Assembly: GCA_020057885.1 (NCBI GenBank)
Contig: JAGVEX010000019.1
Location: forward strand, 84,045-148,044
DNA from: a bacterium
GTDB taxonomy: Bacteria > Patescibacteriota > Patescibacteriia > Veblenbacterales > UBA10138
Direction of reading: 5' to 3'
DNA: 64,000 bases
Shown: positions 17,337 through 63,738 of the stretch, in pieces
Numbering within the stretch: the stretch's first letter is position 1
Layout of the letters: every line of letters starts with the position of its first letter
Position numbers and translations under genes: made by a program
The notes under the pieces: generated by a model
The model's database searches: none
What the model saw: the letters and a program-made list of their open reading frames with translations, nothing else
Told to the model about the DNA's origin: nothing

Positions 17337-17372
17337 CTGTGATTTATGTCCGGCCGGACCTTTTTCACAGGA
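17337..17372. repeat. GC-core palindrome, family member P1 ('cctgtga..gtccggccggac..tcacagg')
   Basis: Perfect 12-bp core 'gtccggccggac' with 7-bp outer arms. It shares the 'atttatgtcc-GC-ggac' motif with P7 at 63703. Confidence 0.5.
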
Positions 17373-17541
17373 TGGTGTTTTGTAGGTTAGGTATTACTTA
17401 ATAAGCAGTAAAACCCTGTGGAACATTAAGCTTAGACTAATAAATAATGCCTTAACTTAGCCAAAACATATTATTCATTGTTCCACAAGTATGAAGAAGA
17501 TGAGATACATCTCCGACACTTTTAAAATATAAGGCATACTG

Positions 17542-18057
17542 GTGGGGAAGGATAATTCCCCTATGTATACACCTAGCCAACACCCATTCATACCTCAACC
17601 TAAAATCTTGCTCTCTAAGCATGAAAGATGGCGTCAGATAGCTAAAGTCTTAAGCCTATCTCAAGAGGCCAAGACTCGCTTGGAATGGTTTATATATCAT
17701 GAATCTCATGGTGCTAAAAACGTCTCCCGTACTGCTAGGCACTTTGGCATACATAGAGACACCTTCCACCATTGGCATAATAGATTTACTGAGACTAATT
17801 TAAGAAGTTTGGAAAGCCATTCCTGTGCTCCCCTTAAGCGTCGCACTTTAGCCTTAAATCAAAGTCAAGTAGATAGGATAATCAAACTTCGAAAGGAGCA
17901 TCTCTTATATGGCAAAATGAAACTTAAAGCTATGTATGAAAGCGAGTATGGCGAGGCTATCTCTTCTTGGCACGTGCAAAAGGTTATTAAACTATATCAT
18001 TTATATCCCCAGAGGAAACCACTAAAACACAATAAACGTCAAATAGGGCTTAGGTGA
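17542..18057 (+). pseudogene. IS481-family transposase, N-terminal (HTH) fragment, interrupted by an IS30 insertion
   Basis: HTH/OrfA-like region ('NVSRTARHFGIHRDTFHHWHNRF'). The matching integrase-core C-terminal fragment resumes at about 19190. Confidence 0.55.
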
Positions 18058-18059
18058 GT

Positions 18060-19100
18060 TCAACAAGTAAGTGCAACACTTGGTAAAATCCAAGCATATG
18101 ACACAATACCAACAATTAACCATTGAGGAACGAGAAAAGATACAAACAGGGTTGTGGGAAAGGAGATCGTTACGGGATATCGCCCGACTGCTTGGCCGAA
18201 ATGTCTCCACTATCTCCCGAGAGCTTCAGCGGAATACAGCAGGCGAGCGAAGACGCTACGTCCCCCGCTTAGCTGAAGAGCGGACACGAAGACGAATACA
18301 AGCACGTGGCCAAAGGGAACGACTGAAGTGTCCTCTCATACGTGAATATGCGATTAGGAAACTGAAAGATGACTACTCACCCGAACAAATCGCTGGCACG
18401 CTCTCAATCGAGCATCTGGCATATTCAATCAGCCCTGAGGCAGTCTATCAATTCATTTACGCGCAGTATCGGAGAGGCGGGTACGGACGGTGTCTTGGAG
18501 AAGACTTACGAGTTTACTTGAAACGCAAACACAAAATCCGCAAATTAAAATATGCGCTGTTCAAAGCAGTCAAAGGGCCAATAAAGAACCGTATTTTCAT
18601 TGATTATCGACCGCAAGAAGTCACCACTAGAATCATCTGCGGTCACTGGGAAGGCGACTCCATGGTGTCCCGTCAGAGCTCGGCTGGTTTAAATACACTG
18701 GTCGAACGAGTTACGGGGCTTATGCTTATCACTAAGATTCAAAACACCACGGCAGCTGAAACGACACAGGCGGTTATCCAACGGCTGAAACGTTTTCCGA
18801 TGAGGCTCCGTCAGACAATCACGGTTGATAACGGCCATGAGAATGCCGGACACGAAGACATTGTGAAGAGGATCAAAACAAAAATATTCTTTGCGCATCC
18901 GTACCATTCTTGGGAACGGGGAATAAATGAAAATGCCAACGGATTGATCCGTTGGTACTTACCGAAGGGAACTGACTTTGCTACAGTGAATGAAGAGCGC
19001 TTGAGAGAGATTGAATATAAACTCAACACCAGACCAAGAAAGCGGCTTGGCTGGAAAACACCACTCCAAGTTTTTAATCAGTGGGTGTTGCACTAGAATA
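18060..19100 (+). mobile_element. IS30-family insertion sequence (about 1.04 kb) nested inside the IS481-family transposase gene
   Basis: It contains one IS30 transposase gene. Candidate terminal inverted repeats share 'gtgcaacac' (18071-18079) and 'gtgttgcac' (19085-19093). Confidence 0.65.
18071..19096 (+). CDS. IS30-family DDE transposase (the real start is probably the ATG at 18098)
   Basis: N-terminal HTH ('LTIEEREKIQTGLWERRSLRDIARLLGRNVSTISRELQRN'), 'GHWEGDS', and the DDE region 'DNGHENAGH'. Confidence 0.85.
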   Translation: MQHLVKSKHMTQYQQLTIEEREKIQTGLWERRSLRDIARLLGRNVSTISRELQRNTAGERRRYVPRLAEERTRRRIQARGQRERLKCPLIREYAIRKLKDDYSPEQIAGTLSIEHLAYSISPEAVYQFIYAQYRRGGYGRCLGEDLRVYLKRKHKIRKLKYALFKAVKGPIKNRIFIDYRPQEVTTRIICGHWEGDSMVSRQSSAGLNTLVERVTGLMLITKIQNTTAAETTQAVIQRLKRFPMRLRQTITVDNGHENAGHEDIVKRIKTKIFFAHPYHSWERGINENANGLIRWYLPKGTDFATVNEERLREIEYKLNTRPRKRLGWKTPLQVFNQWVLH

Positions 19101-19189
19101 TTGAATGTAGCTTAAAAAGAAGCACATCACAGAGCTTTTAAGACAACCACACCCAGGCTTTCTTATTTGTTTAGACACTATTGTACTTT

Positions 19190-19671
19190 ATCAATTTAAC
19201 CTCAAACGCTATATCATCACTGGTATTGATTGGCAGGGCAAGATAGCCTATGCCAAAATGTATACTAATCATTCCTCTGTCTCAGCTACTGATTTCCTTA
19301 AGCGCTTATATTATCTCCTAGATGGCAAGATTGAAAACGTACTCCACGATAATGGCAGTGAGTTTGCTAAGCACTTTATAGAAGCTTCTAAGCAACTACA
19401 CCTCACCCAGTACTATACCAGGGTTAAGACCCCTAAAGACAACGCTGTTTGTGAACGCTTTAATCGTACCCTGAAGGAAGAGTTTCTATACCAAGGCAAC
19501 TTTCATCCTAACCTAGCTGTATTTAATCAAAATTTAACCAATTGGCTTATTGAATATAACTTTAAAAGACCCCACCAAAGCCTTAGGTATCAAACCCCTA
19601 TCCAAGCTGCCTTAAAACAGGGGTACTTGTCGGAGATGTACCCAGTACAAAGTATTGACAATTTGAGCTAG
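19190..19671 (+). pseudogene. IS481-family transposase, C-terminal integrase-core (rve) fragment
   Basis: 'LKRYIITGIDWQGKIAYAKMY', 'DNGSEF', and 'TPKDNAVCERFNRTLKEE' (DDE glutamate region). The frame is open upstream of the annotated Met back to about 19190. Confidence 0.55.
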
Positions 19672-19944
19672 ACGCGCTATGATAATATGTTATTTTCGTG
19701 CTTGGTTTATTAGGGTTTGATTGTACTTTAACAACTTAAGAATAGTAGATAAGTTCGTTGCCACTAACCTGGGAGGGGAGAGGAAATTAAGTACGATAGT
19801 AGATTGGTGTTATAACTGATCAACTACCGTTTGCTTGATTTCTGGTGTATTGCCTTCGGGCATAAGATACACTAACTCTCTACCAGATTAGTGGTAACGA
19901 AATAAGAAAATTAATAATAAAAATAACTTAAAAAGAGGTTCATC

Positions 19945-26110: not shown

Positions 26111-26138
26111 TGTATCAATGTGTTAACACATTGATACA
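26111..26138. promoter_or_regulatory. 28-bp perfect palindrome centred on GTTAAC ('tgtatcaatgtgttaacacattgataca'), a trp-operator-like site
   Basis: It lies just downstream of the TrpR-like gene. A related half-site lies in the divergent promoter region at 26492. Confidence 0.5.
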
Positions 26139-26176: not shown

Positions 26177-26473
26177 TTATTTAAAACCTAAACGGGTTAA
26201 TACCAAACGGTAACCTCCCATACCCTGCCTTAACCAATGGGCCACACGCGCTACAGTAGTAGTGCTCATTCCCAAACGTCCCGCAATATCACGATAATCT
26301 AAGTCTCGCGATAGCATTTTAGCCACTTGAAGCCTATCAGCCATGTCCACTATTTCCTCTGGCGTGCAAAGATCCCTAAAAAATTTACGGCACTCGTCTG
26401 TTGTTTTAATCTTTAAAATAGCCTCAAATAGCTCGTTGGCCTCTTGTCTATCCCATTTCTTAGCACGTTTCAT
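26177..26473 (-). CDS. TrpR-like DNA-binding protein (YerC/YecD family)
   Basis: 98 aa with a C-terminal HTH ('YRDIAGRLGMSTTTVARVAHWL'). Size and pattern match YerC/YecD. Confidence 0.65.
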   Translation of the reverse strand: MKRAKKWDRQEANELFEAILKIKTTDECRKFFRDLCTPEEIVDMADRLQVAKMLSRDLDYRDIAGRLGMSTTTVARVAHWLRQGMGGYRLVLTRLGFK

Positions 26474-46945: not shown

Positions 46946-46962
46946 GCTTAACTAACATATCT

Positions 46963-47458: not shown

Positions 47459-47803
47459 TTAATTAGCCATTAAACCAGTTAACATGCGAGCTATTTCTTC
47501 ACTTTGTTGATAAATGATATCAAATCTAGGTTGCGTTATAAGTGATTTATCTACTAGCAACATACTTACGTTGATAACTTCATAAACTGAACCTTTGGCA
47601 ATATTGTAAAAATTATTTGCTTCTTTTTTAGATTTTCTGCCACTACCCTCAGCAATGTTATTAGGCACCGAAATAGCTGCTCTAATTAAATTATTGCCTA
47701 TAGTATAACGATAATCATTTGGTAATTTTTTAACGTCATCTATTATGTCGCTACAAAACCTTTGTGATTTTTTCCATACTTCTAAGGTTTCAAATTTAAA
47801 CAT
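47459..47803 (-). CDS. Four-helix-bundle protein (TIGR02436 / '23S rRNA intervening sequence protein' family)
   Basis: 'FETLEVWKKSQRF', 'NIAEGSGRKSKKE' and 'IAKGSVYE' signatures. 114 aa. Flanked by 'GTAAGAG' heptad repeats. Confidence 0.7.
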   Translation of the reverse strand: MFKFETLEVWKKSQRFCSDIIDDVKKLPNDYRYTIGNNLIRAAISVPNNIAEGSGRKSKKEANNFYNIAKGSVYEVINVSMLLVDKSLITQPRFDIIYQQSEEIARMLTGLMAN

Positions 47804-47829
47804 ACTCTTACTCTTAACTCTTACTCTTA

Positions 47830-50052
47830 CTAAAATCTTATCTTCTGATTAAAATCTATTATGGCGTTGAATTCGGCTTCGGAAAGTGTTTGTTCGCCTT
47901 GTGTTTGCAAACTAGCCACTATTTCAACAATTGATTTTTCTTGTTCAATGCTAGCTCGGCCTAGTTTTAAATAGAGTTGGTACACAGGCGAAGCTTGCCA
48001 AGAACGCACTGCTTCCACCCGCCGCGATACTGAAGTTTCGCCAATCAAATCTATTTTGGCTCGAACTTTATTCAAAGCCTCCACGGGCGATGAATCAAGC
48101 CTCCTAAAATCAACTAGGTTCAAACTTTTTAACTCTTCCAGTGGACCTAAGGTTCGTGGTGGCGCTTTAATATCTGTTAATTGTGGCCTAATGTTGTTAG
48201 TTGCTCCTAATTCTTGTCCACTTGTTCCTAATTTGGGTGGTGATGGGGGCTGTGCCCCGTGATCAACTACAGTTGATTTTACGGGGGGTGGGGGGGCGGC
48301 TTTGGAAATTTCTTTTAACAATTCCTCCCGCCAATTTTTAAATTTATCCTCACTAAGCGGCTTGTCTTCAATTTTAGTTGCTTGGGCAGCTACCCTAATA
48401 TCTGAACTCTGAATTTCTTTAGGATTTAGCCTGCCTGCGACTCGATTGAGCTCGCCGAAATCCGGTAGGTAGGGATTTTCGGATTTAGGATTTAATTCAC
48501 CAATCTTATCACTCTTGGGTAAAACCACTTGGGGGCCAGTGACCGGTGATGGAGGGCTAACAACTATTGGCTTATCTTCCCCCATTAATTTATCCAACTC
48601 GCTTTGCATTTTTTCCTGTTCTGTTTGTGGCTTACTATTTACCACTGGTGCAGGTTCTTGCTTCGTGATTCTTACTTCGTGATTCTTACTTCGTGATTCA
48701 AACTCACTTTTAGCATCTTCAATAATTTTTATAACTTGTTCTGTTTTATCAACCGGCAAACCTAAACCGCCCGAAGTTACTGGTTTTAATAATGTTTCGC
48801 GCACTTCCACCACATTGCGCACATCTTTTAAGTGTGATACAAACAAATTTATAAACCTGCGCTTGCCAACTTCGTCCTTAAAACTAAAATTATGTTTTTT
48901 AATTGTTTCATCGGCGAGCACTCTTAATTTTTCTTCTAATGTATTCATGATTCGTAATTCAGTATTCGGTATTCTTAATTTATCAACTTCTTTCTCATCT
49001 TCCAAGTTAAAAAAGAATGCCGGTTCAGTAGTTTTTAAGGCTTGAGGAACAAGTTGATTTGTTATTGGTGATACTAATTCTTCTGTCTGTACTCGTGCTT
49101 TGTAATCAGATGCAGTTAATTTTGTGGAGACTGGTCCTGAAGCAGACATTTTAACCACTGCTGGCGCTAACCGAACTGAAATTGGTAGCTCTGCCACCTC
49201 AGTTGCTATTGGTACAGGGACTATTCCAAATGATTGCTGGATAGTTATCGTATTATTTTTCTGTAAATCAATTTTACTTGCCTCTTTATTATTTAAAATA
49301 CTGTTTACTTTAGCGAAAATATCCTTAATACTATTTTCATTATATTCCTCAAACCAACCACCTTTCACCCAACCAGATTTAGCCCCGTCTATCGGAATAC
49401 TTTCCTCTAACCCCTCTAATTCAGTTGATAACAAATGGCAATGTTCATAAACATTTATCAAGTCTCTAAATTTGTCACGCGAGGCAGGTGACAACACCCT
49501 TAATAATTGCGATGAGGAAAAATACTGTTCTTGTTGATATTTATCACTTCTTTTATTGGCCGTAAATACTAAAAAATCTTTTAAAAAGCCGCCAACGGTT
49601 AGGTTGTTTTCTTTCCAATCTGGTAATCTTATTTTTTCTTGATTATTTAACAAAACGTCTATGATTTGTTTTTTTAATTTATTTCTATCTTCATAAACTA
49701 ATATACTTAATAAAGCGCTTTTAAATTTATTATTCAGTTTAAAATCTTCTATCTGCCACGCATCATTAATATGATAATGAAATTGTTCAACAATCTCACT
49801 TTCGTTTAACAATGATAATCCTACCCACTTGCAATGAGCGATGATCTTTTGATAATTACTATATAATTGACCAAACTTCGAATCAATTTTACTCTCTTTT
49901 AAACCAAACTCTAAAGATCTCGCTAATTTATAAGCAGACTCATAATCATCATACTTTTCTATATCACTCAAGCTAGTCAACATCTCCTGATAAACTACAA
50001 GCGATGTTAATGGATATTGTTCAATTAATTGTTTTATACTTGCCATAGACAA
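47830..50052 (-). CDS. Hypothetical cytoplasmic protein (740 aa) of the type IV secretion-like cluster, with a Pro/Lys-rich low-complexity C-terminal third
   Basis: No transmembrane helix or signal peptide. Heptad-type DNA repeats are embedded in the coding sequence at 48660-48700 and 48945-48980. Confidence 0.45.
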   Translation of the reverse strand: MSMASIKQLIEQYPLTSLVVYQEMLTSLSDIEKYDDYESAYKLARSLEFGLKESKIDSKFGQLYSNYQKIIAHCKWVGLSLLNESEIVEQFHYHINDAWQIEDFKLNNKFKSALLSILVYEDRNKLKKQIIDVLLNNQEKIRLPDWKENNLTVGGFLKDFLVFTANKRSDKYQQEQYFSSSQLLRVLSPASRDKFRDLINVYEHCHLLSTELEGLEESIPIDGAKSGWVKGGWFEEYNENSIKDIFAKVNSILNNKEASKIDLQKNNTITIQQSFGIVPVPIATEVAELPISVRLAPAVVKMSASGPVSTKLTASDYKARVQTEELVSPITNQLVPQALKTTEPAFFFNLEDEKEVDKLRIPNTELRIMNTLEEKLRVLADETIKKHNFSFKDEVGKRRFINLFVSHLKDVRNVVEVRETLLKPVTSGGLGLPVDKTEQVIKIIEDAKSEFESRSKNHEVRITKQEPAPVVNSKPQTEQEKMQSELDKLMGEDKPIVVSPPSPVTGPQVVLPKSDKIGELNPKSENPYLPDFGELNRVAGRLNPKEIQSSDIRVAAQATKIEDKPLSEDKFKNWREELLKEISKAAPPPPVKSTVVDHGAQPPSPPKLGTSGQELGATNNIRPQLTDIKAPPRTLGPLEELKSLNLVDFRRLDSSPVEALNKVRAKIDLIGETSVSRRVEAVRSWQASPVYQLYLKLGRASIEQEKSIVEIVASLQTQGEQTLSEAEFNAIIDFNQKIRF

Positions 50053-53000
50053 TTACAAAGTTTTGGTTTTAACTTTAGCTTTATCTAAAACCTCGTCTGC
50101 ATTCATATAAGCCTCTTTAGCTGGAACACCTCCTTTTTTAGATGGTATAGAATTTATCTTTGCTAACAACGCTGGCATAAAACCACTTTCTTCTATTATC
50201 TTGCCCTCTTTGTCCTTTTTGCCATTCCAATCTTCTCTCATTCTATCTGCAGTTCGTTTCCTTTTTTCATATTCTTCTGGATCGGTCGCTTTGTATTTTT
50301 CTGCCCCCTCTTGAATACTTTGTGCCTCAAGTTCAATTTTTATACCAATTTGTTTTAGTACTTTCATGTTATCTTCGCTGTTCATATTTTCTAACATGTT
50401 GCCATTAGCCTCCCTCATATGTGTTTTAAGTTCGGAATAATGTTCCAGTATATAAGCAACGCCCATTTCGTTTAAAACCGCCTTACGGCCCTTGCTAAGA
50501 TCATTTGGATCTATTGGTTCTTCGTCCATCCAGGCACCACGATTAGATTGACGCCACACGGTCCTCATATCCCGTTTACCGATTTCAACATAACAACGCT
50601 GTTTTTGTGTCTCACGATCACGTTGTTTAAATAAACCATTATCCATTGATACGGCTTGACCAAATGTCCACCAACCCTTATCCTCTGCCACATTACTTAA
50701 ATCATTTTCTAGAGACAAATAAGATTGTTCTTTCATATGAAACTTGTGTCCCATAACCTCATTCATAAATTTATGTAAGCCATCAATGTTGGTTTTATAA
50801 CCTTGATCTTCTAAAATTTCATTTAAATGACCTACTTCGGTAGCTCTAGCCATAATAGCCTGTCCTAAAGCAGAATCACCCCTGTTAAGGGCATCGCGAA
50901 ATCTTGATTTTAATTCATCTTCATTAGTCGTGGTTATTTTCTTCTTTTCTTCATTTACATGCGCACGACCTGCCGCAGTAGCATAATAATTTTGTAATCG
51001 ATAACACCCCTCTCTTTCAATTTTCTTACCAACCTCTTCTGCTTGTCTACGCTTGTCTTTGCGCTCAGATAATGTAAGCTCTGGTGTTTCTAAACGATAC
51101 TGCAAGTTAGCACTTTCGTTGTTAAGTTCTAAAATTTTATTTTCTTTATCTTTCTTTTCATTGTTAGTAAGTTTGCTAAAGTCACTCATATCTTTTTTTC
51201 TTTTTTCCATTTCTTTAAGATTTTCCTTGGCTGTTGTTGTATCCTCTCCACGAGCTTCTTTGGCTGTTATATCTTTTTTTTCTTTATCAATTTCTATTTG
51301 AATCTCAGCTATAATTTTTCCACGTTGCTCTTTTTGGGCATTAGTAAGAGTATCTTTCCCTAATTCCTCAACCTCTCTTTTAATTACCTCTTGTCTTTTC
51401 TTTAACAATCCACTTCCTTCGTCGTTTAATATTTTCCTTTCTTCAGCAGTAAATTTATTTCTCATAACATCATCCATAATATCCTCTTCTTTTTCTCCGG
51501 CTGCTTTTCGTGTTACAATTTCGCTTTTTTGATCAATAACTTTTTTCTGCAAATCACTGTTTGCTAATACGCCTCCATTTAAAACATGTTTTATGGCTGT
51601 TTCTGACTTGCTTTCAGCTGAGGATTCTTTGTTTAATTTCTCTTGCCGACTCTGTAATCCTTCAGTCTTTTTGGCATTACTAAATATACCTCTAATTGTT
51701 TTGAGATATAAAAATCCTTGTAAATTATCTCCTATATCTTCCGAGCCTAAAGAAGCTGCTAGTCCTCGTACACCACCTTGGGCTATATTAGCCGCGGCGG
51801 CTTCATGAAGCTCGCCTTCTTCTTTGTGTTTTTTTGTTGCAAAACCTTCTTTTACATTTTTCCAAGCTTTAACAGGGTTTAATTCATACCCTTTAAGCCA
51901 CTTGAAGCCTGGCACTTTACCTGCCCCAGCTTTTCTAGCTGCCCAAGAATAAGTACTAAAGGGCGCCAAAGCGCTCTTTTTAGCCATCCATGATCCTCCT
52001 TTTTGAATCGCGCTCATCGCACTCCCGGCCAATTTTCCCCCCGCCACGCCGAGTTGCTGTGTCATCCATAAACCGCCCAAAAGCAACATAATGCTAACAA
52101 TAAAAGAAAGCAAAACTTCTGATTGACCAATACTAGTAATAGTCGCGGCGGGAAGTCCTGAAGTTCCTGTGCTAACTCCCGTAAGAGTGCTAGCTGTAGA
52201 TCCGCCCGACATCTGCATTACTGCCAAACTTAACCACAAAAAGAAAGCGAGAATAGGCCCGCTGGAAGCATATTTGCCAAAATAATCCCACCACTGCGAA
52301 GCATACTTTTTAGCATCTCCCGGAAAAGCCTGCAAAATATAAGCCGCGGGAGAAATAATTACCAAAAGCCACAGCATTACAATTCTAAGCGTAAACACCA
52401 CAATATAAACTCCAACTACAATAGTGGCAATGGTAATGGTAATAAGTGCCAAAGCCGCCGCAAAAAAGAAATCTGAACCCGTTGTAGTTACAGTTTGATT
52501 CGAACCTTTTTCCGCGAACTGAAACATATCCTTAATATGGAAACCATTTATAAAGTTGCCCGTAGCCGCATCCTTAAACCCGTTTACAAAAGTAAGCATT
52601 ACCACCTGCGCAAAATCAATAAAGAATCCGGCAATACCTTTGGAAAAATTAACCAGTACTGCCATAATAAGCAATTTGGAAAGTAGGTGTTTGTATTGAT
52701 ATTCCTCCACGCGGAATACTGTACCAAAAGAAATAGCCAACAATATTACAATAAAAAACATGTTTACCACATCCCTCATTACCACCCAACCTTTTACTAC
52801 TGCTGGCGCATCAATAAAACCGTTGTATTGCACAATTTCCACTAAAATACCTATCAAAGCATTGGCGATTGCTCCCACCCCTTGGGCTAAAAGTAACAAA
52901 AGTCCAGCTAAAAGGTTAATTACAGCATCAGAAACTATATTGGCATGCGCTGGTATTGGTAAAAGCAAGGCCAAAACAAAAATACCTAAAATACCCGCGG

Positions 53001-53061
53001 CCGTGGCGCGTGAATATTTAAGTTTGGATGAAAATATTTGTCTTAATTTACCACTAACCAT
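50053..53061 (-). CDS. VirB6/TrbL-like polytopic membrane protein with a roughly 600-aa K/E-rich coiled-coil C-terminal extension
   Basis: Signal or transmembrane start, at least 6 transmembrane helices in the first roughly 380 aa, then a long charged hydrophilic tail. 1002 aa. Confidence 0.45.
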   Translation of the reverse strand: MVSGKLRQIFSSKLKYSRATAAGILGIFVLALLLPIPAHANIVSDAVINLLAGLLLLLAQGVGAIANALIGILVEIVQYNGFIDAPAVVKGWVVMRDVVNMFFIVILLAISFGTVFRVEEYQYKHLLSKLLIMAVLVNFSKGIAGFFIDFAQVVMLTFVNGFKDAATGNFINGFHIKDMFQFAEKGSNQTVTTTGSDFFFAAALALITITIATIVVGVYIVVFTLRIVMLWLLVIISPAAYILQAFPGDAKKYASQWWDYFGKYASSGPILAFFLWLSLAVMQMSGGSTASTLTGVSTGTSGLPAATITSIGQSEVLLSFIVSIMLLLGGLWMTQQLGVAGGKLAGSAMSAIQKGGSWMAKKSALAPFSTYSWAARKAGAGKVPGFKWLKGYELNPVKAWKNVKEGFATKKHKEEGELHEAAAANIAQGGVRGLAASLGSEDIGDNLQGFLYLKTIRGIFSNAKKTEGLQSRQEKLNKESSAESKSETAIKHVLNGGVLANSDLQKKVIDQKSEIVTRKAAGEKEEDIMDDVMRNKFTAEERKILNDEGSGLLKKRQEVIKREVEELGKDTLTNAQKEQRGKIIAEIQIEIDKEKKDITAKEARGEDTTTAKENLKEMEKRKKDMSDFSKLTNNEKKDKENKILELNNESANLQYRLETPELTLSERKDKRRQAEEVGKKIEREGCYRLQNYYATAAGRAHVNEEKKKITTTNEDELKSRFRDALNRGDSALGQAIMARATEVGHLNEILEDQGYKTNIDGLHKFMNEVMGHKFHMKEQSYLSLENDLSNVAEDKGWWTFGQAVSMDNGLFKQRDRETQKQRCYVEIGKRDMRTVWRQSNRGAWMDEEPIDPNDLSKGRKAVLNEMGVAYILEHYSELKTHMREANGNMLENMNSEDNMKVLKQIGIKIELEAQSIQEGAEKYKATDPEEYEKRKRTADRMREDWNGKKDKEGKIIEESGFMPALLAKINSIPSKKGGVPAKEAYMNADEVLDKAKVKTKTL

Positions 53062-53291
53062 GGTAAAAATTAGTTTAAATAATATAAAATCAATAACTAA
53101 TACTATCTTATGTTATCTTACCACTAAATTAGGCAAATTAGTACTGTATTAGTACATTTATTATAACACAATTTTTAATTTCCAGCAACAATAATATAAT
53201 AACCCAATACTTACTTAAATTTTATTGGTCTTCACACCCTGCCTACTAATAAATAGAAAACGAAGCAGATAAAATATAACATCTTTCAATA

Positions 53292-53325
53292 TGCCAAAAA
53301 GTGTCCGGCCGGACACTTTTTGGCA
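53292..53325. repeat. GC-core palindrome P4 (34-bp perfect: 'tgccaaaaagtgtccggccggacactttttggca'), the left border of cassette 2
   Basis: Perfect palindrome with an A5 - GC hairpin - T5 layout. It is part of a roughly 45-bp direct repeat shared with 53973-54016. Confidence 0.6.
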
Positions 53326-53387
53326 CAATAGAGAAAGTGGTGCTAAAATATAATTATCAAAACTATTAAATATAACTCACTATTACT

Positions 53388-53939
53388 ATGACCAAAATTC
53401 CACCCCTCACTAAACTTCTACTTTATTGCCTGTTAAAAAGCGGGCAATCAATAATTGACTATGCCGTATTTATGCACGACCTTAGGCAATGGCGAGGATT
53501 ATATTCAATGGGTGGTAGTGCTCGTGTTAGTGAAATTAAAAAATTACAAAATATATCAAGCGCAAAAATCTGCCTGCGTAAGCTTAAAGAGGGTAAATTT
53601 ATCAAAGCGCGCAAAATTGGCAAAAAACTTATTATAGAACTTACAGACAAGGGGGTGGCTGCGACCTTAAGTGAACAATTGCGACAAGAAACTTTACTAC
53701 CGAGTGGCACTTACACGCTGGTGATTTTTGATATTCCAGAAACAGAGCGGGAGGCGCGGCGACATTTCCGCTGGCTACTGCGGCAAGGGGAATTTATTAA
53801 ACTGCAACAAAGTGTTTGGATAAGCAAGCATAATGTGCAAAATACAATTACCCAATTTGTAAAAAAATTAAAACTGGAAAAATGGGTTAATGTTGGTTTG
53901 GTAAGCAATTTGTTTACTGTGGCAAAAAATAATTTATAA
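53388..53939 (+). CDS. PaaX-like wHTH / Cas2-like-motif protein (cassette 2)
   Basis: 'YTLVIFDIPETEREARRHFRWLLRQGEFIKLQQSVWISK'. Same size and layout as ORF 40560..41108. Confidence 0.55.
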   Translation: MTKIPPLTKLLLYCLLKSGQSIIDYAVFMHDLRQWRGLYSMGGSARVSEIKKLQNISSAKICLRKLKEGKFIKARKIGKKLIIELTDKGVAATLSEQLRQETLLPSGTYTLVIFDIPETEREARRHFRWLLRQGEFIKLQQSVWISKHNVQNTITQFVKKLKLEKWVNVGLVSNLFTVAKNNL

Positions 53940-53978
53940 GGTCAATAAAATATCTACAACATACCTAAAATTATCAAT

Positions 53979-54014
53979 ATGCCAAAAAGTGTCCGGCCGG
54001 ACACTTTTTGGCAT
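53979..54014. repeat. GC-core palindrome P5 (36-bp perfect: 'atgccaaaaagtgtccggccggacactttttggcat'), the right border of cassette 2
   Basis: Perfect palindrome, a direct repeat of P4. Confidence 0.6.
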
Positions 54015-54093
54015 ATGATGATATTTACAGTATTTAATAATATTAATGACATTAATAATATTTAAACTAATTAATTATTTTCTCTCATCATCC

Positions 54094-54130
54094 CTAAACA
54101 AAACTACCCTTGTTTAACAAGGGTAGTTTG
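54094..54130 (-). terminator. Rho-independent terminator of the giant gene
   Basis: 13-bp stem 'aactacccttgtt' / 'aacaagggtagtt'. The minus strand continues 'ttttgttt'. It lies about 40 nt downstream of the stop at 54171. Confidence 0.55.
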
Positions 54131-60100: not shown

Positions 60101-62477
60101 CAGTGGTAGGAATAAAATTCATATCATCATTTGTAGGTAAACATTCAAGCCCGCCGCAGGTAGCTGAAGTTTGACAAATACTGCCGTTATTTATACCACC
60201 ACAACGCAAATTCTGGTTAAAGAAACTGGAATTTTGCTGATAATTGTTATAACCAATACATTCATTGGGGCAAGTGTTGCCTTTAATGGCTGGAATATTG
60301 GGTGAACCGTCGGCTGGCGTATAAAGTTCACAACCAACATCATCAACCCTACAAGAATTTAAATAATTTTTGCAAAGCGCTGAATCGTTAGTAATGTCCG
60401 CGTCATAACAATTTAAGAAACTAGGTGCCTCGCGCAAAGTAACAGCTTGTACTTTGGCATATTGTTCATATGAATCAGTGCTAGTGGCAGGTGTAACTCG
60501 AGCCACTACATCATTAGCCAAACATGCCACATCACTTGTACCGCAGGTAGTACCAACCAAGGTCGACATATTAAAATTACTCAAGCGCAAAAATTGCGTG
60601 CATCCTTCAGCGCTGGATTCGCAGGCGTATGTGCTAAAATCTTTCAAATAAATTTTATCGTCAGCATTATAACGGTTAACTGGTATACTGGCCGCAGAAT
60701 TATAAGATTTGGAATACCAACGGCAACCAATTGAATCACTGGTACAAATACTATTTTCTCCTACCAATGAATTTTGTAGATAAAAATTCGTATTGCCGCT
60801 ACGACTGGTAAATGCCTGACAAGTAGCATAAGGGGAATAACCTGAGCCCGCTGGAAATTCACAACTATCGCCACTGAAACGCCAAACATTTTTTTCTTTG
60901 GTACAATAACCCCAGGCCTGACAATTACCATTATCATCTTCAGCTACACAATTTTGCGTATCAACGCAAATTTCTTGCCTAGTGCCACCTTCAGATTGCA
61001 ACTGTTGGCCACTGGCCTGAATGCGACATTGTGACTGAGGAGCTTTTAATACCCAATTAGGATCAATTAGATGATAAAAAGGGCTACCTAAAACATTAAA
61101 TCCATCCATTACTTGTCGCAAAGTATAACTGGTGCCGGCAAATTGTTTAGCGGCCATTTCCCAGCCAATTGGAATGATTCGCGCCCGGCGTAATTTTTTT
61201 AAATCTGATTCATACCATTTACTAGGCTGACTTTCTTGCTCAGGATGATCTTTAGCAAACACCCAACTGCCGTTAATAAGTTTTTTATTTTGTACGGCGT
61301 CGGCCACAGTAAGCGGCTGACCCGACTCAGCTGAACGCAAAGCCTGCTCAAAACCATTATCAATAGTACAGTTATTAAGCTCAGCAAATTTTCGTGGGCT
61401 AGGACAATTTGAAAACTCGCTGATAACATCAATTTTATCCACACTCTTAAGAGTGGGAGTGGAAATTGAACTATTTATTTGCATGGCGTAATCCACGCCA
61501 CTAATACTGGTATTGTTTGCGATTGGTGAAAATGTGCCGCTGGGATTTTTAACATCTCCCTCTAAAAGCCGTTTCATTAAACGAGAAGCTAGGGTATTGG
61601 TAAAAACACCTAAGGCGTCGGCCACAACATCCCCGGTATAAGTATTAAAATCTTTTAGGGCCTCACCAACAGGCGTATCAACTAATAATTTTTCAACTTT
61701 AGCAGCAGGAGTTTTTATAAAACCGGTAATTGGTTCAGTAACAGCCCTTATGCCCCCATTCATGGTGTCGAGTGCTTTTTGAACGGCTTTTTGATCCTCG
61801 GCTCGTGTTAATAAATCTTGACGCAAACTCAAACTTACGCCCAATTCATTTTGCCGTGGATCTATAGCATAACCAAAAGCCTGTTGCGCCATGCGGGGAT
61901 TTTTTAAATACTGATCCCAAGCCGCGCCAATTTGTTTTAAATTACAACGTGGTCTAGTAGGTCGTATTTCTTCAAATAAAGCCGTGGTAATAATAAGGTT
62001 AGCAGTAAAACCTGGTGGCCTACATACATCCAAACTTAAATAACCGTTCTCGGTAGCTATGGTATCTATAAAGTCACCAGCCGCATCATTCCAAGCGTCA
62101 GTAGCTGATTTACCTAAATTTTTCCAAGTAAATAAAGGTGTTTGTCCTTTGCCACCAGAACCTATCATTACCGCGGCATCATAAGCAATGCGATTGGCAA
62201 ACATTTTAGCTGCATTTTTAAAAGCCACGGCCGCGCCATGTTCCCATACCCATTCTAAAGATTTTGTAAGCCAACCTTTAGCCGCCTCTGCCTGTTGTGC
62301 GACAATTTGTAGCTGGATTGCTGCTAAAACCCCTGGATCAGTTACTGCCCACTGTGCTTGAGCGGATTTAGGAGTAAAAAAAGAAACACCAACTGTAGTA
62401 AAAATAACACTCAAAAATATTCCAGTAGTTAAAACGCGGAATAAGCGTGGGTGTTTATTTTTTAACCAAGAAGACAT
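54171..62477 (-). CDS. Giant (2768 aa) cysteine-rich secreted or surface protein with an N-terminal signal anchor
   Basis: One uninterrupted ORF. The N-terminus has a hydrophobic signal ('LTTGIFLSVIFTTVGVSFF'). Several hundred Cys, Gly, Ser, Thr and Asn residues suggest disulfide-rich beta-structure. A heptad array lies just upstream. Confidence 0.7.
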   Translation of the reverse strand: MSSWLKNKHPRLFRVLTTGIFLSVIFTTVGVSFFTPKSAQAQWAVTDPGVLAAIQLQIVAQQAEAAKGWLTKSLEWVWEHGAAVAFKNAAKMFANRIAYDAAVMIGSGGKGQTPLFTWKNLGKSATDAWNDAAGDFIDTIATENGYLSLDVCRPPGFTANLIITTALFEEIRPTRPRCNLKQIGAAWDQYLKNPRMAQQAFGYAIDPRQNELGVSLSLRQDLLTRAEDQKAVQKALDTMNGGIRAVTEPITGFIKTPAAKVEKLLVDTPVGEALKDFNTYTGDVVADALGVFTNTLASRLMKRLLEGDVKNPSGTFSPIANNTSISGVDYAMQINSSISTPTLKSVDKIDVISEFSNCPSPRKFAELNNCTIDNGFEQALRSAESGQPLTVADAVQNKKLINGSWVFAKDHPEQESQPSKWYESDLKKLRRARIIPIGWEMAAKQFAGTSYTLRQVMDGFNVLGSPFYHLIDPNWVLKAPQSQCRIQASGQQLQSEGGTRQEICVDTQNCVAEDDNGNCQAWGYCTKEKNVWRFSGDSCEFPAGSGYSPYATCQAFTSRSGNTNFYLQNSLVGENSICTSDSIGCRWYSKSYNSAASIPVNRYNADDKIYLKDFSTYACESSAEGCTQFLRLSNFNMSTLVGTTCGTSDVACLANDVVARVTPATSTDSYEQYAKVQAVTLREAPSFLNCYDADITNDSALCKNYLNSCRVDDVGCELYTPADGSPNIPAIKGNTCPNECIGYNNYQQNSSFFNQNLRCGGINNGSICQTSATCGGLECLPTNDDMNFIPTTAKSCVAQAVGCEEFTNVQNEAKEYYAELRQCIKLDTGEDHIYYTWVGSNLSGYQLKTWQLKAEDPTMPNSAPTTTDNSNIGSECGNGITPPTDFPSNPDCKQFYDTTGGIHYRYWSKTITASASCANYRATSINQNDCEASGGTWDASAVPPACFYNAIPQEGVICSAQYVGCREYRGPTADNIRLVFPITTFGDNEAGFSTDTTPTGGFTPGSNSNESTSAFGHSLYSGAGNSTITKDISGKVAKSKLYFLNFWIKSTAATSTISASINTNPLASLGSLPISGEWQVYTLGPVQLTADVPASLALTISSPASFYIDNVSLREIGDTFFVRKDTWVTPSTCTASDLRCAAYTNRAGTKTTLTDFSKICKVEAVGCEALVNTQNSSSPKSTVVTLPDPPALNIPADQVIYRVYDAKKSCAASAKACQRVGEPKLDSSGNVQDWSDKFVKLNPDTLGDTGAGSLLCSRAQDKCEQFTDSNSVTHFFKDPGNGVCEYKQLDSLRGYDWYKKGTTELCDLLDNPSFEKVNDVGDNLIADGDFENITVWPANWYSISPTDWNLSLSSDLIRDSHNGVQSIKDEFAGGDDAVRQNFDVIIGQAYTARVWVKADTGIRRTLNISGCGVNVSDYTEEAGVWEKLQLSFKPTTRTCLLQLNTSAGGSAVAGTAYYDNVTVNLSDAFSGWNINGPSGEETESAIFTAHESVAGQYWGSNVLEIESGAKIYAGIWSNDVKIESSSTPRYFTVSAHIYVPDIPQNRNFTSWQLTQQAVPHYDYEPGYDNIITSTEKGKWVYKQALIKIDPGVTQLSVGLITNGGVEQPVGSGNMICTPETCSTNQVIYVDQFSLSESQVPLAYLCPADQVSCKAFHDPELTKQTYYYLDNSKLDKKCTGVSKKEGCLLFTDLSSSQLTSNAAATYASSTGQNDKLIAPISAPPNNANIILKVSRDRVCGEWLACQSESTRFVSSKASSICYALGKCDAWGTSGSGVSKCSHWLTPPEDPQPLTLTNYQARATDWSGMDYSGYSIPDKYSIELLTQKNYSTDPLTTNIRLTYINNKVKRCGGTGDECNLPIGSSASPCNTVTTCQYEDKGATGLGPLDDKKLLSDNNTVIKACRAYPEKDSPFPTVVVKNWTPACEGSNCLPVGTANYIAVAKNKDADYKDANNCQNGEDCECSYSKAIYSGGQTLYYGFDTTKLQSMFYTQNDIDANTNQPVEVKSKIKTDNSFIGMKGYCLEQDTSRSINSGTAKACLTWLPLDTAAGEISVYNYAPEAGYTGGEIFYCSESIGNKVGSRGENYTYHAANGALANCNVAYIDYTADWRCYEFQDVRYCTNDFTLQNSELGSNYFCNNKDKRIEAAGEDIVIFSRVAEVGEENFYKADIETIYLPFQLFGGWGINPNFTLTTNSQEEYGRFYLNKGNDWCAGVKCDMNQQCDFNFTELADRCAKLTSNNILPPNTLIDGTQHNLDVAMNIHSLTNFDYAVIKAVFDSNDKFLGYNVIYSDGSPGTGSFVINGRETYLREYCTEAVQVASSASNKVWTDRVLRNTVYQVAPKTELGFTQSRNPSPYGKLSQAVDSGTSMLIMSDKPGVNITSSSGDFSTFPQSFFCENGCGTGYGICLSGQSNGILTIGKQCNKSADCGDSSAPVCMGYFNKVCEVGGVSGVRTTQLCQVDNDCNSGDTCTGYQGLGWGTSGIVRVQQLFAKIFDVLTWNTSTSRFTSPALPDIDSSSGLPGSLCSPSTNPPCYYNVPLAPSIKQVVFELNGTSTIEGNTGFTLQTPGGSFNNGEVVLASPAPISTLFYAYNPNGEQMPLTDVWVNWGDGSVLAGASGKYKNHKHMCEPATVKAKMCTNLADLGKLCANDTQCSSILNACKEGDVANPRYNFGDSSQACVQDTASGSLGYFGFTKVYTCSSSSLSYNPNSLGANQGACEFTPAVLVKDNWDWCLGSTGAKWGTPDCISNSSNLSASGWLKFNGIIKVKP

Positions 62478-62485
62478 ACTATAGT

Positions 62486-62520
62486 TAAATCCTAAATCCT
62501 AAACTCTAATTTCTAAACAA
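62486..62520 (-). promoter_or_regulatory. Heptad array ending 10 nt before the giant-gene ATG (minus strand reads 'tagaaat tagagtt taggatt taggatt taactat')
   Basis: Same motif family as the arrays at 16238, 46061 and 46808. Confidence 0.45.
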
Positions 62521-62631
62521 TAAATGAATTAATTAATTTAAGTTTTAAATTATTATTTTGAATGCTGAACTGTGAAAGTTAAATTATTTGGATTTTGTTT
62601 GACGTTTGAGCTTTGAATTTTGATATTTATA

Positions 62632-63381
62632 CTACAACCCCAAGGTTTGTTTAACAATGTTTTTTACAGTATCATCATCAAATTCCTTTAATGTAGTGGC
62701 ATCAACCCCATTTTTAATTAATAACTGTCTTAATTCCGCGCCTGAAAGTTTTAGAATTGCTTGTTTTTGTTCTTGGGTTAATTGCACTGTAGCAGTAGGC
62801 GAAGTAGTACTATTGTCAGACCCACTAGTAACCGTTGGCGACTCATTGCCAGCCACTTCTTGATAAAGTTTTAACAAGGCGGCGTCGTCATACTTGGATA
62901 AAACTTCATCGGTAGCCCCATTAGTTTTTAAAAATTGCCTTATTTGCTCCACAGTCGGCTGATTAGTGGCGGTTGTTTCTCCAACGGCACTATTTATTTT
63001 AACCCCGCAGGTTTGGCCTTTAGCGCAAAGCGGATCGTTGCCCGTAGTTACTTCAACCTTGTCATCATAGCCATCGGAATCAGTATCTTTTAAATAAGGA
63101 CTGGTTTTGTAAATGTAAACTTCGTCATAATCAGACAAGCCGTCATTATCGGTATCTTTATTTTTAAGAGCTTCGGCTTCAGAGCCCTCAATGGTTGAAT
63201 TATTTACATTTTGTTCGCCTGTACTGGTATTAATTGATGAAGTATCGGTAAAAGGTAATTTAATTAAAGTGCGGATTTGCCAAACACCTAAAATTAAGGC
63301 TCCTATAGCAACCAACCCCAAAACAAAGTTAACACGCTCGTGGGAAGGGGCTGGCCTATCATCTCGAGGCGTGGTAGGCAT
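62632..63381 (-). CDS. Bitopic membrane protein with thrombospondin-type-3-like Ca-binding Asp repeats
   Basis: N-terminal transmembrane helix, then 'DTDNDGLSDYDEVYIYKTSPYLKDTDSDGYDD'. 249 aa. Confidence 0.4.
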   Translation of the reverse strand: MPTTPRDDRPAPSHERVNFVLGLVAIGALILGVWQIRTLIKLPFTDTSSINTSTGEQNVNNSTIEGSEAEALKNKDTDNDGLSDYDEVYIYKTSPYLKDTDSDGYDDKVEVTTGNDPLCAKGQTCGVKINSAVGETTATNQPTVEQIRQFLKTNGATDEVLSKYDDAALLKLYQEVAGNESPTVTSGSDNSTTSPTATVQLTQEQKQAILKLSGAELRQLLIKNGVDATTLKEFDDDTVKNIVKQTLGL

Positions 63382-63567
63382 ATTTAAAACAATAATTTAA
63401 CTGAAAATTGATAATTTATCTAAATCAATTATATCACAGAACGGGGTAATTGTCAAAGTTAAAAGCTTAAATTCTAATCTGAAGCGCAACGCTTTGAAAG
63501 GGATAGACTCGTTTACAATATATGCGCAAAAATCCAAAACCTGAATCACCTTAAATCACCAATCTTA

Positions 63568-63593
63568 CACTTTGTGACGGCCGCCAAAAAGTG
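63568..63593. repeat. GC-core palindrome P6 ('cactttgtgacggccgccaaaaagtg'). It is a single copy in a locus homologous to both flanks of cassette 1, a putative empty site.
   Basis: 63515-63593 matches 40464-40537. 63594-63660 matches 41231-41300. No ORF lies between them. Confidence 0.5.
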
Positions 63594-63702
63594 TAAGATT
63601 TAAATTAAAATAAATTGTTTAAACTAAAATCATAATAGCTATTACGGCGCCAACTACTAATGAAGACTTTGTTGGCTTATCAACTCAGGATGAATTGCCT
63701 TA

Positions 63703-63738
63703 GTACGGATTTATGTCCAGCTGGACATAAATCCGTAC
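63703..63738. repeat. GC-core palindrome P7 (36-bp perfect: 'gtacggatttatgtccagctggacataaatccgtac')
   Basis: Perfect palindrome with a 'gtccagctggac' core. Confidence 0.5.

Follow-up and report, generated by a model that had tools for sequence, protein, structure and literature searches.

Palindromic sites on either side of genes for small PaaX-like proteins with a Cas2 fold in Patescibacteria

Genes bracketed by short, partly palindromic recombination sites are known from Xer-dependent pdif modules and integron attC cassettes, in which solo sites and arrays also occur; pdif sites have conserved arms and a variable centre. A second described system concerns the protein rather than the arrangement. 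PaaX of Escherichia coli and Pseudomonas (PDB 8a39 and 3l09) is a phenylacetyl-CoA-responsive repressor with an N-terminal winged helix and a Cas2-like middle domain, as in the proteins described here. The E. coli PaaX operator is TGATTC(N27)GAATCA, the promoter Px is autorepressed by steric hindrance, and the protein has a middle "dimerization motif" (review PMC9493321). A description of the palindrome-gene-palindrome arrangement reported below was not found in the literature.

Palindromes and genes in the window

A preliminary description of the window (the whole 64-kb stretch of DNA analysed) had listed seven palindromes, and all seven (P1-P7) were found in place (Table 1). They are real and far beyond chance: with a minimum of 12 matched bases per arm, seven palindromes are counted in the window, whereas 20 dinucleotide-shuffled versions average 0.1. 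When up to two mismatches are allowed, GTCCGGCCGGAC is found five times in the window, versus 0.47 expected. The palindromes had been taken for one family, but at least three specificity types can be told apart: P2/P3/P6; P4/P5, with which P1 has only the core in common; and P7. The element GATTTATGTCC...GGAC is common to P1 and P7, as had been noted. It had also been proposed that P4 and P5 carry the half-sites of P2, P3 and P6 in inverted order. One 7-8-mer is indeed common to the two groups, the inverted order having a chance probability of ~0.03 by a hand estimate, but the order is not conserved at L001, the locus of an ORF1 ortholog.

P2/P3 and P4/P5 flank two PaaX_M/Cas2-like ORFs, in agreement with the preliminary description. 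ORF2 is 28% identical to ORF1, for which a TTG at 40560 is an alternative start giving 182 aa. The -35 element of the candidate ORF2 promoter is the outer end of the right arm of P4, and P4 and P5 are identical over 40 nt, with narrower limits of 53290-53327 for P4 and 53977-54016 for P5. P3 has 16-nt arms and a 2-nt centre, with an inner extent of 41205-41230; its right flank carries a 24-codon stub of the 5' end of the PD40 gene (41295-41369, 95% identical to 39450-39524). P6 and P7 are 140 bp apart. P1 is imperfect, with a symmetric core (GTCCGGCCGGAC), symmetric outer CTGTGA/TCACAG boxes and asymmetric middle spacers (RNA-fold z = -3.2). It lies ~165 nt from the first IS ORF; the IS ends could not be defined, which leaves the direct contact with the IS composite given in the preliminary description tentative. 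No gene of the protein family was found near P1.

Table 1. Palindromes, genes and flanking features in the window
Feature	Position	Strand	Description
P1	17337-17375		Solo composite site, CTGTGA-TTTAT-GTCCGGCCGGAC-CTTTT-TCACAG
P2	40502-40547 (core 40512-40537)		Core CACATTGTGACGG/CCGTCAAAAAGTG; upstream site of ORF1, divergent genes on either side
P3	41201-41234		CACTTTTGGTCGG/TCGACCAAAAGTG, centre CGGTCG; downstream site of ORF1, convergent region
P4	53286-53327		TGCCAAAAAGTGTCCGG/CCGGACACTTTTTGGCA; upstream site of ORF2, divergent genes on either side
P5	53974-54016		Downstream site of ORF2, convergent region
P6	63568-63593		CACTTTGTGACGG/CCGCCAAAAAGTG; solo P2-type site, paralogous locus without the gene
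P7	63703-63738		Solo site, perfect over 36 bp (18+18), centre CAGCTG
ORF1	40590-41108	+	wHTH and Cas2 fold (PaaX_M), 172 aa from ATG at 40590
ORF2	53388-53939	+	wHTH and Cas2 fold, 183 aa
ORF1 candidate promoter	40516-40544	+	Sigma-70-like, TTGTGA-17-TATATT with TG, overlaps P2; consensus match only
ORF2 candidate promoter	53320-53349	+	Sigma-70-like, -35 TTGGCA, 18-nt spacer, -10 TAAAAT; consensus match only
AT-rich hairpin after ORF1	41145-41174	+	Separate, before P3; candidate for the real terminator
Loop hairpin followed by Ts	54101-54129	-	Separate from P5; likely terminator of the 2768-aa gene
P2 left flank	40457-40511		~86% paralogous to 63513-63567 (P6 left flank)
P3 right flank	41255-41369	-	Paralogous to 63594-63664, right of P6

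A PaaX-like protein family with a winged helix and a Cas2 fold

Both ORFs match the PF20803 (PaaX_M) profile (E = 1.7e-21 for ORF1 and 6.5e-15 for ORF2). In an AF2 model (pLDDT 86), a wHTH is followed by a beta-alpha-beta-beta-alpha-beta fold; the best full-length Foldseek match is E. coli PaaX (8a39), and the C-terminal domain matches type II-A Cas2 at 24-30% identity. The two proteins score above the cut-off of 24.5 bits for TIGR01573 (NCBIfam cas2; 26.7 and 28.3 bits) and far below that of 264.55 bits for TIGR02277 (PaaX; 35.2 and 19.0 bits). Their chains stop directly after the Cas2-fold domain, without PaaX_C, and we refer to them as mini-PaaX. Weak profile matches to the AspA/TubR wHTH and to VapD were also obtained, and profile and structure searches gave no Y1_Tnp or HUH match in either ORF. 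The NCBI product name, CRISPR-associated endonuclease Cas2, is derived from homology and is probably misleading.

The Asp of Cas2 beta1 (D115, in an FDIPE motif) is invariant in 56 family sequences, and the family also keeps the QxSVW/F motif of Cas2. In true PaaX structures, both the FDIPE motif and the Asp are absent, and this difference hints at a function of the mini-PaaX domain beyond dimerisation.

Association, architecture and promoter geometry across Patescibacteria loci

The site-gene-site arrangement was found across Patescibacteria (CPR) genomes in a survey of 83 homologous loci from MAGs. The density of strong palindromes is 3.25/kb in the 150 bp before the gene and 3.54/kb in the 150 bp after it, versus ~0.16-0.2/kb out to 5 kb. 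Within 150 bp on either side, long palindromes are enriched ~20-fold, and those with a GC core 30- to 40-fold. A CGRYCG-centred site adjoins 42 of the 83 genes, compared to 0.15% of control windows, and the upstream and downstream flanks have a word of at least 12 nt in common at 62/78 loci versus 2/63 controls. Downstream copies begin -11 to +27 nt from the stop codon and lie in a convergent intergenic region at 11 of 32 loci. Third copies enclose other genes at four loci (L026, L040, L050 and L077), and in L060 the gene is followed by an array of six or more sites.

Copies without the gene were also observed. Solo copies adjoin unrelated housekeeping genes (tig, recR, def and mgsA), and one 42-nt palindrome recurs at several sites of a single community (L087, L088, L091 and L092). 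Solo copies can cluster without a family gene, as in L106, a relative's version of the P6 locus, which contains P7-, P4- and P2-type solo sites but no such gene.

At the centre of the sites is a short conserved sequence, CGRYCG or CTATAG/CTATCG; the arms differ from locus to locus, and the whole site measures 30-58 bp. Many are perfect over 30-58 bp, spacers included, whereas asymmetric sites are tripartite, with outer inverted boxes around a central mini-palindrome (CCGACAA-N6-AACGATCGT-N5-TTTGTCGG in L055). Most upstream and downstream copies are individually symmetric, and the two copies of a locus are direct repeats that have even their asymmetric spacers in common. Arm identity is 0.72-0.94 between the two copies of one locus, compared to only ~0.4 (background ~0.3) between loci whose proteins are 60-100% identical. 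Arms diverge fast between genomes while the two copies of a locus stay alike, that is, they evolve in concert. Paralogs of one genome have different sites, and an identical 22-mer, AAAGTGTCCGGCCGGACACTTT, adjoins ORF2-like genes that are 30-47% identical to ORF2 and 39-70% identical to one another.

The upstream copy is fixed in position with respect to the -10 element of the gene and lies over the -35 region. At 17 of 29 loci, a -10-like hexamer is found on the gene side of the upstream centre at a distance of 26-44 nt, compared to 12% for random positions, 6/29 on the far side and 5/36 gene-ward of the downstream copy. Moreover, a -10 is placed 4-9 nt before the ATG in 29/83 family genes versus 72/450 control ORFs, and the promoter is probably leaderless. 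The downstream copy has neither a promoter pointing into the gene nor a terminator signature.

Interpretation and comparison with known systems

We favour, with a probability of roughly 0.6, the reading that the palindromes are cognate operator or boundary sites of the dimeric mini-PaaX encoded between them, which would be autoregulated at the upstream copy. Operators for the wHTH proteins had been one of the options in the preliminary description; this option is strengthened by the family-specific association in 83 loci, the fixed position of the upstream copy relative to the -10, and a site width like that of the PaaX operator. By analogy with the middle domain of PaaX, the Cas2-fold domain would dimerise mini-PaaX, and two winged helices would read inverted boxes ~25-35 bp apart, with the CGRYCG centre on the dyad. 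Since the upstream copy (P2, P4) overlaps the -35 of the gene's own promoter, the protein would autoregulate, the simplest mode being occlusion of RNA polymerase, the way PaaX acts at Px. A second binding site of the same protein, without a promoter of its own, may be provided by the downstream copy (P3, P5), which would cooperate with the upstream copy either through looping of the ~640-bp unit or as a protein roadblock or insulator that keeps transcription from reading into the unit or out of it. The solo copies P1, P6 and P7 would be further targets of mini-PaaX or of paralogous proteins. The association, the geometry, the fold and the concerted evolution of the two copies are observed directly, whereas binding, the sign of regulation and the roles of the downstream and solo copies are what we infer.

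Several observations sit uneasily with this operator reading. Where a downstream copy lies in a convergent region, there is no promoter for it to control, and half of the architecture is therefore left unexplained by plain operator logic. The perfect symmetry extends to spacers that a dimer should not read, suggesting that a hairpin or cruciform, or templated homogenisation, matters too. Neighbouring genes are diverse (160 Pfam families among 142 neighbours), and the absence of conserved neighbouring targets is unusual for a classical local regulator. Finally, direct repeats upstream and downstream are also the expected product of an integration event, which counts against operators.

Such an event is central to the strongest rival, still an unlikely one, in which the site-gene-site unit is a self-contained cassette, mobile or selfish, that uses the palindromes for attachment or cleavage; recombination sites had been another option of the preliminary description. 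Insertion or excision of the gene by recombination or cleavage at the CGRYCG centre would leave one palindrome at empty sites and two direct copies around the gene, while the protein would contribute site specificity and perhaps also catalysis, by way of the Cas2 Asp that it has kept. P6 has the form of an empty site: its locus is paralogous to P2-P3 but lacks the gene and has one palindrome, with a left flank like that of P2 and a right flank like that of P3. L106, too, looks like a version of the P2 locus that lacks the gene. The gene-less L106 sites, the direct repeats with matching asymmetric spacers, the conserved centre between variable arms, the invariant Asp115, the third copies around other genes and the L060 array are in line with a cassette, as is the occurrence of several divergent paralogous units per genome, dispersed among unrelated housekeeping genes. 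However, solo sites would also arise if the gene were lost by ordinary recombination between the two direct repeats of 30-40 bp, and hand inspection found no hybrid (attL/attR-like) palindromes at P2/P3, most copies elsewhere being individually symmetric. The most frequent neighbour families include neither an integrase nor a transposase nor Cas1, and the protein family is absent from a viral contig collection. Synteny around orthologous units is preserved between related genomes (the window compared with L001/L002, and L003-L005). Paralogs within a genome are 28-68% identical, giving no sign of recent transposition, and the only near-identical duplication found (L083) has a different repeat at its boundaries rather than the palindromes.

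A more specific version, which we consider improbable, makes the wHTH-Cas2-fold dimer, its catalytic Asp intact, the active part of a repeat-gene-repeat element that recognises and perhaps nicks or recombines its repeats. It may act on the partly palindromic 30-50-bp repeats at the conserved CGRYCG dyad. Bracketing by direct repeats, solo "empty" sites, the L060 array and the fast concerted diversification of protein and site would all be accounted for in this way. If true, it would represent a free-living relative of the CRISPR-adaptation partnership of Cas2 and repeat, or a new class of site-specific selfish cassette.

It is equally doubtful that the palindromes act through RNA or DNA hairpins that terminate, insulate or stabilise transcripts on either side of the gene, as bidirectional terminators or processing sites. 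P3, P4, P5 and P7 are very stable hairpins (z = -6.3 to -10.1), P4 and P5 have an A5-stem-T5 form, a terminator scan flags P5 on both strands, and both the perfect symmetry of many sites, spacers too, and the closeness of downstream copies to the stop codon would suit such a role. Yet P2 and P4 lie between divergently transcribed genes, where there is nothing to terminate, P2 is not a stable hairpin (z = -1.9), and the asymmetric spacers of many sites would break the stem. T-tails are not enriched (7/36 downstream copies, 5/29 upstream copies and 20/105 unrelated palindromes), the A/T tracts of downstream copies are randomly oriented (8 terminator-like, 7 inverted and 21 with none), and no Rfam match was obtained. 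The separate loop hairpins at 41145 and 54101, before P3 and after P5, are available as real terminators. Other gene ends in the same loci, out to 5 kb on either side, almost never carry such palindromes, which speaks against a generic terminator family, and the terminator option of the preliminary description has to be given up. Intrinsic bidirectional terminators were rejected as a class; P5 alone fits the pattern of a GC hairpin and a U-tract.

Generic dispersed repeats (REP- or HIP-like), near wHTH-Cas2 genes by coincidence or insertion preference, are very improbable: the solo copies beside housekeeping genes and the recurrent 42-nt palindrome would fit, but beside the family gene they are enriched 300-fold relative to control windows, each locus has arms of its own that match across the gene, and the upstream copy is in fixed phase with the promoter.

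Compared with known systems, the arrangement differs from REP/RAYT and IS200/IS605 elements in that the flanked gene encodes a wHTH and a Cas2 fold, not an HUH/Y1 transposase. Relative to pdif sites, the CPR sites are reversed, with a conserved centre and variable arms that track the encoded DNA-binding protein. Different from both pdif modules and integrons, the CPR units have no integrase among their frequent neighbour families, and a host Xer enzyme may act on the sites in trans. Toxin-antitoxin and partition modules (VapD-type toxins, AspA/TubR wHTH) are likewise small, self-contained, scattered and multi-paralog, with their own palindromic or iterated site adjoining the gene and protein-site pairs that diverge quickly. 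The CPR unit differs from them as a single gene with sites on both sides, and its neighbour families include no partner toxin, antitoxin or NTPase. With Cas2, the CPR C-terminal domain shares the ferredoxin-like fold, the beta1 Asp and QxSVW/F, and the repeat-insert-repeat order with partly palindromic repeats of ~30-40 bp superficially resembles CRISPR. The CPR protein is nevertheless fused to a wHTH and the "insert" is the gene itself; neither Cas1 nor another cas family is among the most frequent neighbour families, and the window contains no CRISPR-like array. Unlike PaaX, the CPR proteins are short (172-190 aa versus 316 aa), have no PaaX_C ligand-binding domain and keep the Cas2 FDIPE lost in PaaX, and their sites have a CGRYCG centre, are often perfect palindromes and lie on both sides of the gene. 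No paa families occur among the most frequent Pfam families of the 142 neighbours or among the ~30 window ORFs scanned with Pfam, which include all palindrome neighbours. A further likeness to PaaX would lie in the wide inverted-repeat operator at its own promoter, to which the 30-58-bp CPR sites overlapping the -35 would be analogous.

Palindromes of the window and the genes they bracket

In the window (GC content 38.6%), all seven palindromes claimed in the preliminary description, P1-P7, were present. The number of palindromes with 12 or more matched arm positions was seven, where dinucleotide shuffles gave 0.1 on average, and the 12-mer GTCCGGCCGGAC occurred five times with up to two mismatches against 0.47 expected, indicating that the palindromes are genuine and not a product of chance. 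P4 and P5 share the same 40-nt sequence (53286-53325 and 53974-54013), P7 is a perfect palindrome (18+18, centre CAGCTG), P3 has arms of 16 nt and a centre of 2 nt, and P1, P2 and P6 are imperfect. They do not form the single sequence family that had been proposed: P2, P3 and P6 are of one type, P4 and P5 of a second, P7 differs from both, and P1 has only the core in common with P4 and P5. The supposed use of the same half-sites in inverted order comes down to one shared 7-8-mer, which is not conserved in L001, the locus of the ORF1 ortholog.

Four of the palindromes do bracket the two Cas2-like cassettes, P2/P3 lying around ORF1 and P4/P5 around ORF2. The two proteins are only 28% identical and are the sole members of their family within the window. 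Both match PaaX_M ('PaaX central Cas2-like domain') in Pfam and, more weakly, Cas2; in NCBIfam, their scores exceed the curated cut-off for cas2 and fall far short of that for the PaaX equivalog. The AlphaFold model of ORF2 (pLDDT 86) combines a winged helix and a linker helix with a βαββαβ domain.

One scan of species-representative genomes yielded >585 relatives, and the 80 loci kept from it are almost all from MAGs of Patescibacteria (CPR), three being titled as other phyla. An exhaustive profile search returned 6,710 clusters at 50% identity. Within one genome, paralogs are 28-68% identical and their sites differ; a 186-aa ORF past an extra site in the locus L050, considered as a second family gene, was unrelated. 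Many members (P0011, P0012, P0016 and others) carry the NCBI product name 'CRISPR-associated endonuclease Cas2', and the JGI name is 'PaaX'. Neither Cas1 nor a CRISPR array was found in any family locus examined, and for this wHTH-Cas2 family both labels are likely to mislead. Systematic mis-annotation as 'Cas2' inflates the apparent CRISPR content of CPR genomes.

A T4SS-like cluster lies between the cassettes, and thus the two wHTH-Cas2 units bracket it. It is followed by a giant gene encoding 2768 aa and by a TSP3-repeat gene. Upstream of several minus-strand genes, in the cluster and at the giant gene, are AT-rich intergenic repeat blocks (AAATCCTAAATC..., GGGAATTGGGAATT...), which may be promoters or regulatory regions that these genes have in common. 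Elsewhere in the window, a perfect 28-bp palindrome, TGTATCAATGTGTTAACACATTGATACA, is located 39 nt past the 3' end of a Trp-repressor-family gene and may be an unrelated operator.

Positions of palindromes, genes and other features in the window
Feature	Position	Strand	Remark
P1	17337		solo
28-bp palindrome	26111-26138		perfect
Trp-repressor-family gene	26177-26473	-	
P2	40512		upstream of ORF1
ORF1	40590-41108		172 aa
Loop hairpin	41145-41174		other terminator candidate
P3	41205		downstream of ORF1
T4SS-like cluster	41374-53061	-	
T4SS_pilin-domain protein	within 41374-53061	-	
740-aa and 1002-aa proteins	within 41374-53061	-	no Pfam match
AT-rich repeat block	43954-44104		
VirB4/TraG P-loop ATPase	44189-46054	-	
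TraC-like protein	46108-46797	-	
AT-rich repeat block	46799-46942		
P4	53290		upstream of ORF2
ORF2	53388-53939		183 aa
P5	53977		downstream of ORF2
Loop hairpin	54101-54129		other terminator candidate
AT-rich repeat block	62476-62536		
P6	63568		solo
P7	63703		solo

Site architecture and evolution across the family

Across 83 loci, the density of strong palindromes was 3.25/kb over the 150 bp preceding the gene and 3.54/kb over the 150 bp that follow it, compared to about 0.16-0.2/kb elsewhere within ±5 kb; GC-core palindromes are enriched 30-40× near the gene. These gene-adjacent sites are 30-58 bp long and often perfect, and their central hexamer is CGGCCG (38), CGATCG (19) or CGGTCG/CGACCG (7) in 64 of the 83. 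Sites centred on CGRYCG and matching at 10 or more of 12 arm positions adjoin 42/83 genes, against 0.15% of control windows. Most remaining loci have the same kind of site, with CTATAG or CTATCG at the centre or with asymmetric spacers; in the latter layout, two inverted outer boxes are separated by spacers from a short central palindrome, as in CCGACAA-N6-AACGATCGT-N5-TTTGTCGG at the locus L055. Moreover, the upstream and downstream flanks have a 12-mer or longer word in common in 62/78 loci, mostly in direct orientation, compared to 2/63 controls. In the literature on the wHTH-Cas2 family, we found no description of this site architecture.

The inner 22 nt of P4/P5 were found at 25 loci in a metagenome scan. 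An ORF2-like gene lies beside the site at 10 of them, with the site pair spaced 683 and 693 bp in two, and the encoded proteins are 30-47% identical to ORF2 and 39-70% to each other. The identical core beside such divergent proteins indicates that the core is conserved more strictly than the protein sequence. The outer arms of P4/P5-type sites vary, and across the wider family only the site centre is conserved. Even among proteins of 60-100% identity, the arms of the sites are only ~0.4 identical (background ~0.3), compared to 0.72-0.94 for the two copies of one locus; thus, change in the two copies is fast but concerted. Such a pattern would be expected if both copies must fit one and the same protein, or if they undergo gene conversion. 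The covariation count is biased because both copies had been pre-selected as near-perfect palindromes. An ungapped zone analysis for conserved outer boxes among related proteins gave a weak signal (0.41 vs a background of ~0.3), and therefore the proposal that the outer boxes track the protein draws on individual examples.

Solo copies and the possibility of mobility

Sites also occur apart from family genes. The P6 locus is a paralogous copy of the P2 left flank joined to the P3 right flank, with no gene between them, and includes a stub of the 5' end of a PD40 gene. Its version in a more distant relative, L106 (AbiEii 56% identical, same stub), carries, in a 170-bp stretch (2258-2424) upstream of an AbiE toxin-antitoxin pair, one P7-type and one P4-type site, both perfect, together with a P2-type core, and has no wHTH-Cas2 gene on its 3.2-kb contig. 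P7 is therefore part of this system too, and perfect palindromes are retained at solo sites. The P4-type core also occurs on its own beside tig, recR, def, mgsA, a HhH-GPD glycosylase gene and an IS30-type gene, and third copies occur around neighbouring genes in L026, L040, L050 and L077. In the locus L060, at least six sites (~32 nt, ccgtattatATTTTGCTATAGCAAAATataaga) follow the gene at a spacing of 110-135 nt up to the contig end (5335-5915). No ORF of at least 60 aa lies between them, and the repeats form an array of putative binding sites.

The site-gene-site unit could alternatively be an integrating cassette, a reading that the direct-repeat bracketing and the gene-less loci fit, as do the scattered contexts (160 Pfam families among 142 neighbour genes, mostly housekeeping, with no conserved partner). 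However, the commonest neighbour families include neither a recombinase nor Cas1, the synteny of orthologous units is maintained between related genomes, and within-genome paralogs are old. The only recent duplication found, in the locus L083 (4503-8818), was considered as a composite-transposon-like case: a ~1068-bp unit, made up of a 54-aa ORF and site-gene-site, is present in two copies of ~99% identity that flank a Schlafen/AlbA_2-HATPase_c_4 gene and a MazE-like gene. The transposon-like reading was rejected, since this segmental duplication is bounded by another repeat, one that holds a terminator-like hairpin. When the arms of P2 and P3 were compared by hand, no hybrid attL/attR-type pattern was seen. 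Furthermore, solo sites can also be produced when a gene is lost by recombination between its 30-40-bp direct repeats. Given this evidence against recent mobility and this second route to solo sites, we regard mobility as a rival and not as the main reading. The absence of the family from the viral contig collection counts against mobility too, and on the same ground a phage origin was rejected.

A duplicate of the initial 75 nt of the PD40-repeat gene (MFENIDRRKILL..., 39450-39524) lies 1845 bp away at 41295-41369 with 95% identity, forming a 24-codon stub right of P3 that is also present in L106; a third, more diverged copy lies right of P6 (63605-63664). The interval that is duplicated includes an AbiEii/DUF6922 toxin-antitoxin pair (39532-40453), which is degraded in the relative L001. 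IS30-family elements prefer palindromic targets, and IS30-type (HTH_38 + rve) genes were seen in two unrelated places at ~115-700 nt from family-type palindromes, at P1 (17542-19105) and at a P4-type site in the locus L098 (190-1173).

Promoter position and proposed role of the sites

The centre of the upstream copy lies 28-60 nt before the ATG. At 26-44 nt gene-ward of this centre, a −10-like hexamer was found in 17/29 loci, compared to 12% at random positions, 6/29 on the far side and 5/36 on the gene side of the downstream copy. In the window, P4 supplies the −35 element of TTGGCA-18-TAAAAT with the outermost part of its right arm, and P2 lies inside TTGTGA-17-TATATT, both assigned by consensus match. 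A −10 element is positioned 4-9 nt before the start codon (peak 6 nt) in 29/83 family genes vs 72/450 control ORFs. Shine-Dalgarno motifs are rare (5/83 family genes), and a TATAAT-like hexamer ends ~6 nt 5' of the ATG in many loci (L006-L085). This arrangement suggests that family mRNAs may be leaderless.

The preliminary description had also offered bidirectional terminators, a reading that the data do not bear out. T-tails follow 7/36 downstream copies, 5/29 upstream copies and 20/105 unrelated palindromes, and are thus unenriched. The A/T tracts of downstream copies are of mixed orientation (8 terminator-like, 7 inverted, 21 none), P2 is not stable as a hairpin (z = −1.9), and at gathering thresholds Rfam matched only two tRNAs in the window and nothing at the palindromes. 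P2 and P4 moreover lie between divergent genes, and with the negative tail and tract tests, and the concentration of the palindromes beside family genes, a generic terminator family was rejected.

Its suggestion of operators for the wHTH proteins is the one we favour, based on gene association, promoter position and PaaX-like geometry. The palindromes are best explained as cognate sites to which dimeric 'mini-PaaX' wHTH-Cas2-fold proteins are predicted to bind. The upstream copy would serve as an operator for autoregulation, overlying the −35 region, with a sign of regulation that we infer; the downstream copy would provide a further site, presumably helping to loop or insulate the ~640-bp unit; and solo copies may be further targets. 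Helical phasing of the upstream-downstream spacing, sought as a sign of looping, was not detected (Rayleigh p = 0.75-0.96, periods 10.4-10.6). The symmetric spacers in many sites, the invariant Cas2 Asp and the near-universal bracketing make a catalytic or mobile role conceivable.

To our knowledge, regulators are seldom recognisable in Patescibacteria (CPR), and hardly any of their regulatory sites have been defined by experiment. Here a large family (about 6,700 clusters) is paired with a predicted cognate DNA site, apparent directly from each locus, providing ready protein-site pairs for biochemistry. The architecture is unusual in that the same long site, evolving fast but in concert, lies on both sides of the regulator gene. 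It goes beyond textbook autoregulation, with looping, insulation and mobility as candidate explanations.

The wide inverted-repeat geometry of the family sites resembles the operator of E. coli PaaX, which binds TGATTC-N27-GAATCA and represses its own promoter by steric hindrance, with a central dimerisation motif (PMC9493321). The proteins are alike as well, E. coli PaaX (8a39) being the best full-length structural match of the ORF2 model. Different from PaaX, the family proteins are without the C-terminal ligand-binding domain and retain the Cas2 β1 motif FDIPE, with an invariant Asp, which true PaaX structures do not. The C-terminal domain of ORF2 matches type II-A Cas2 in fold, at 24-30% identity. 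In this family, a Cas2-fold domain is predicted to take part in sequence-specific DNA binding outside CRISPR, a point relevant to the recruitment of Cas2.
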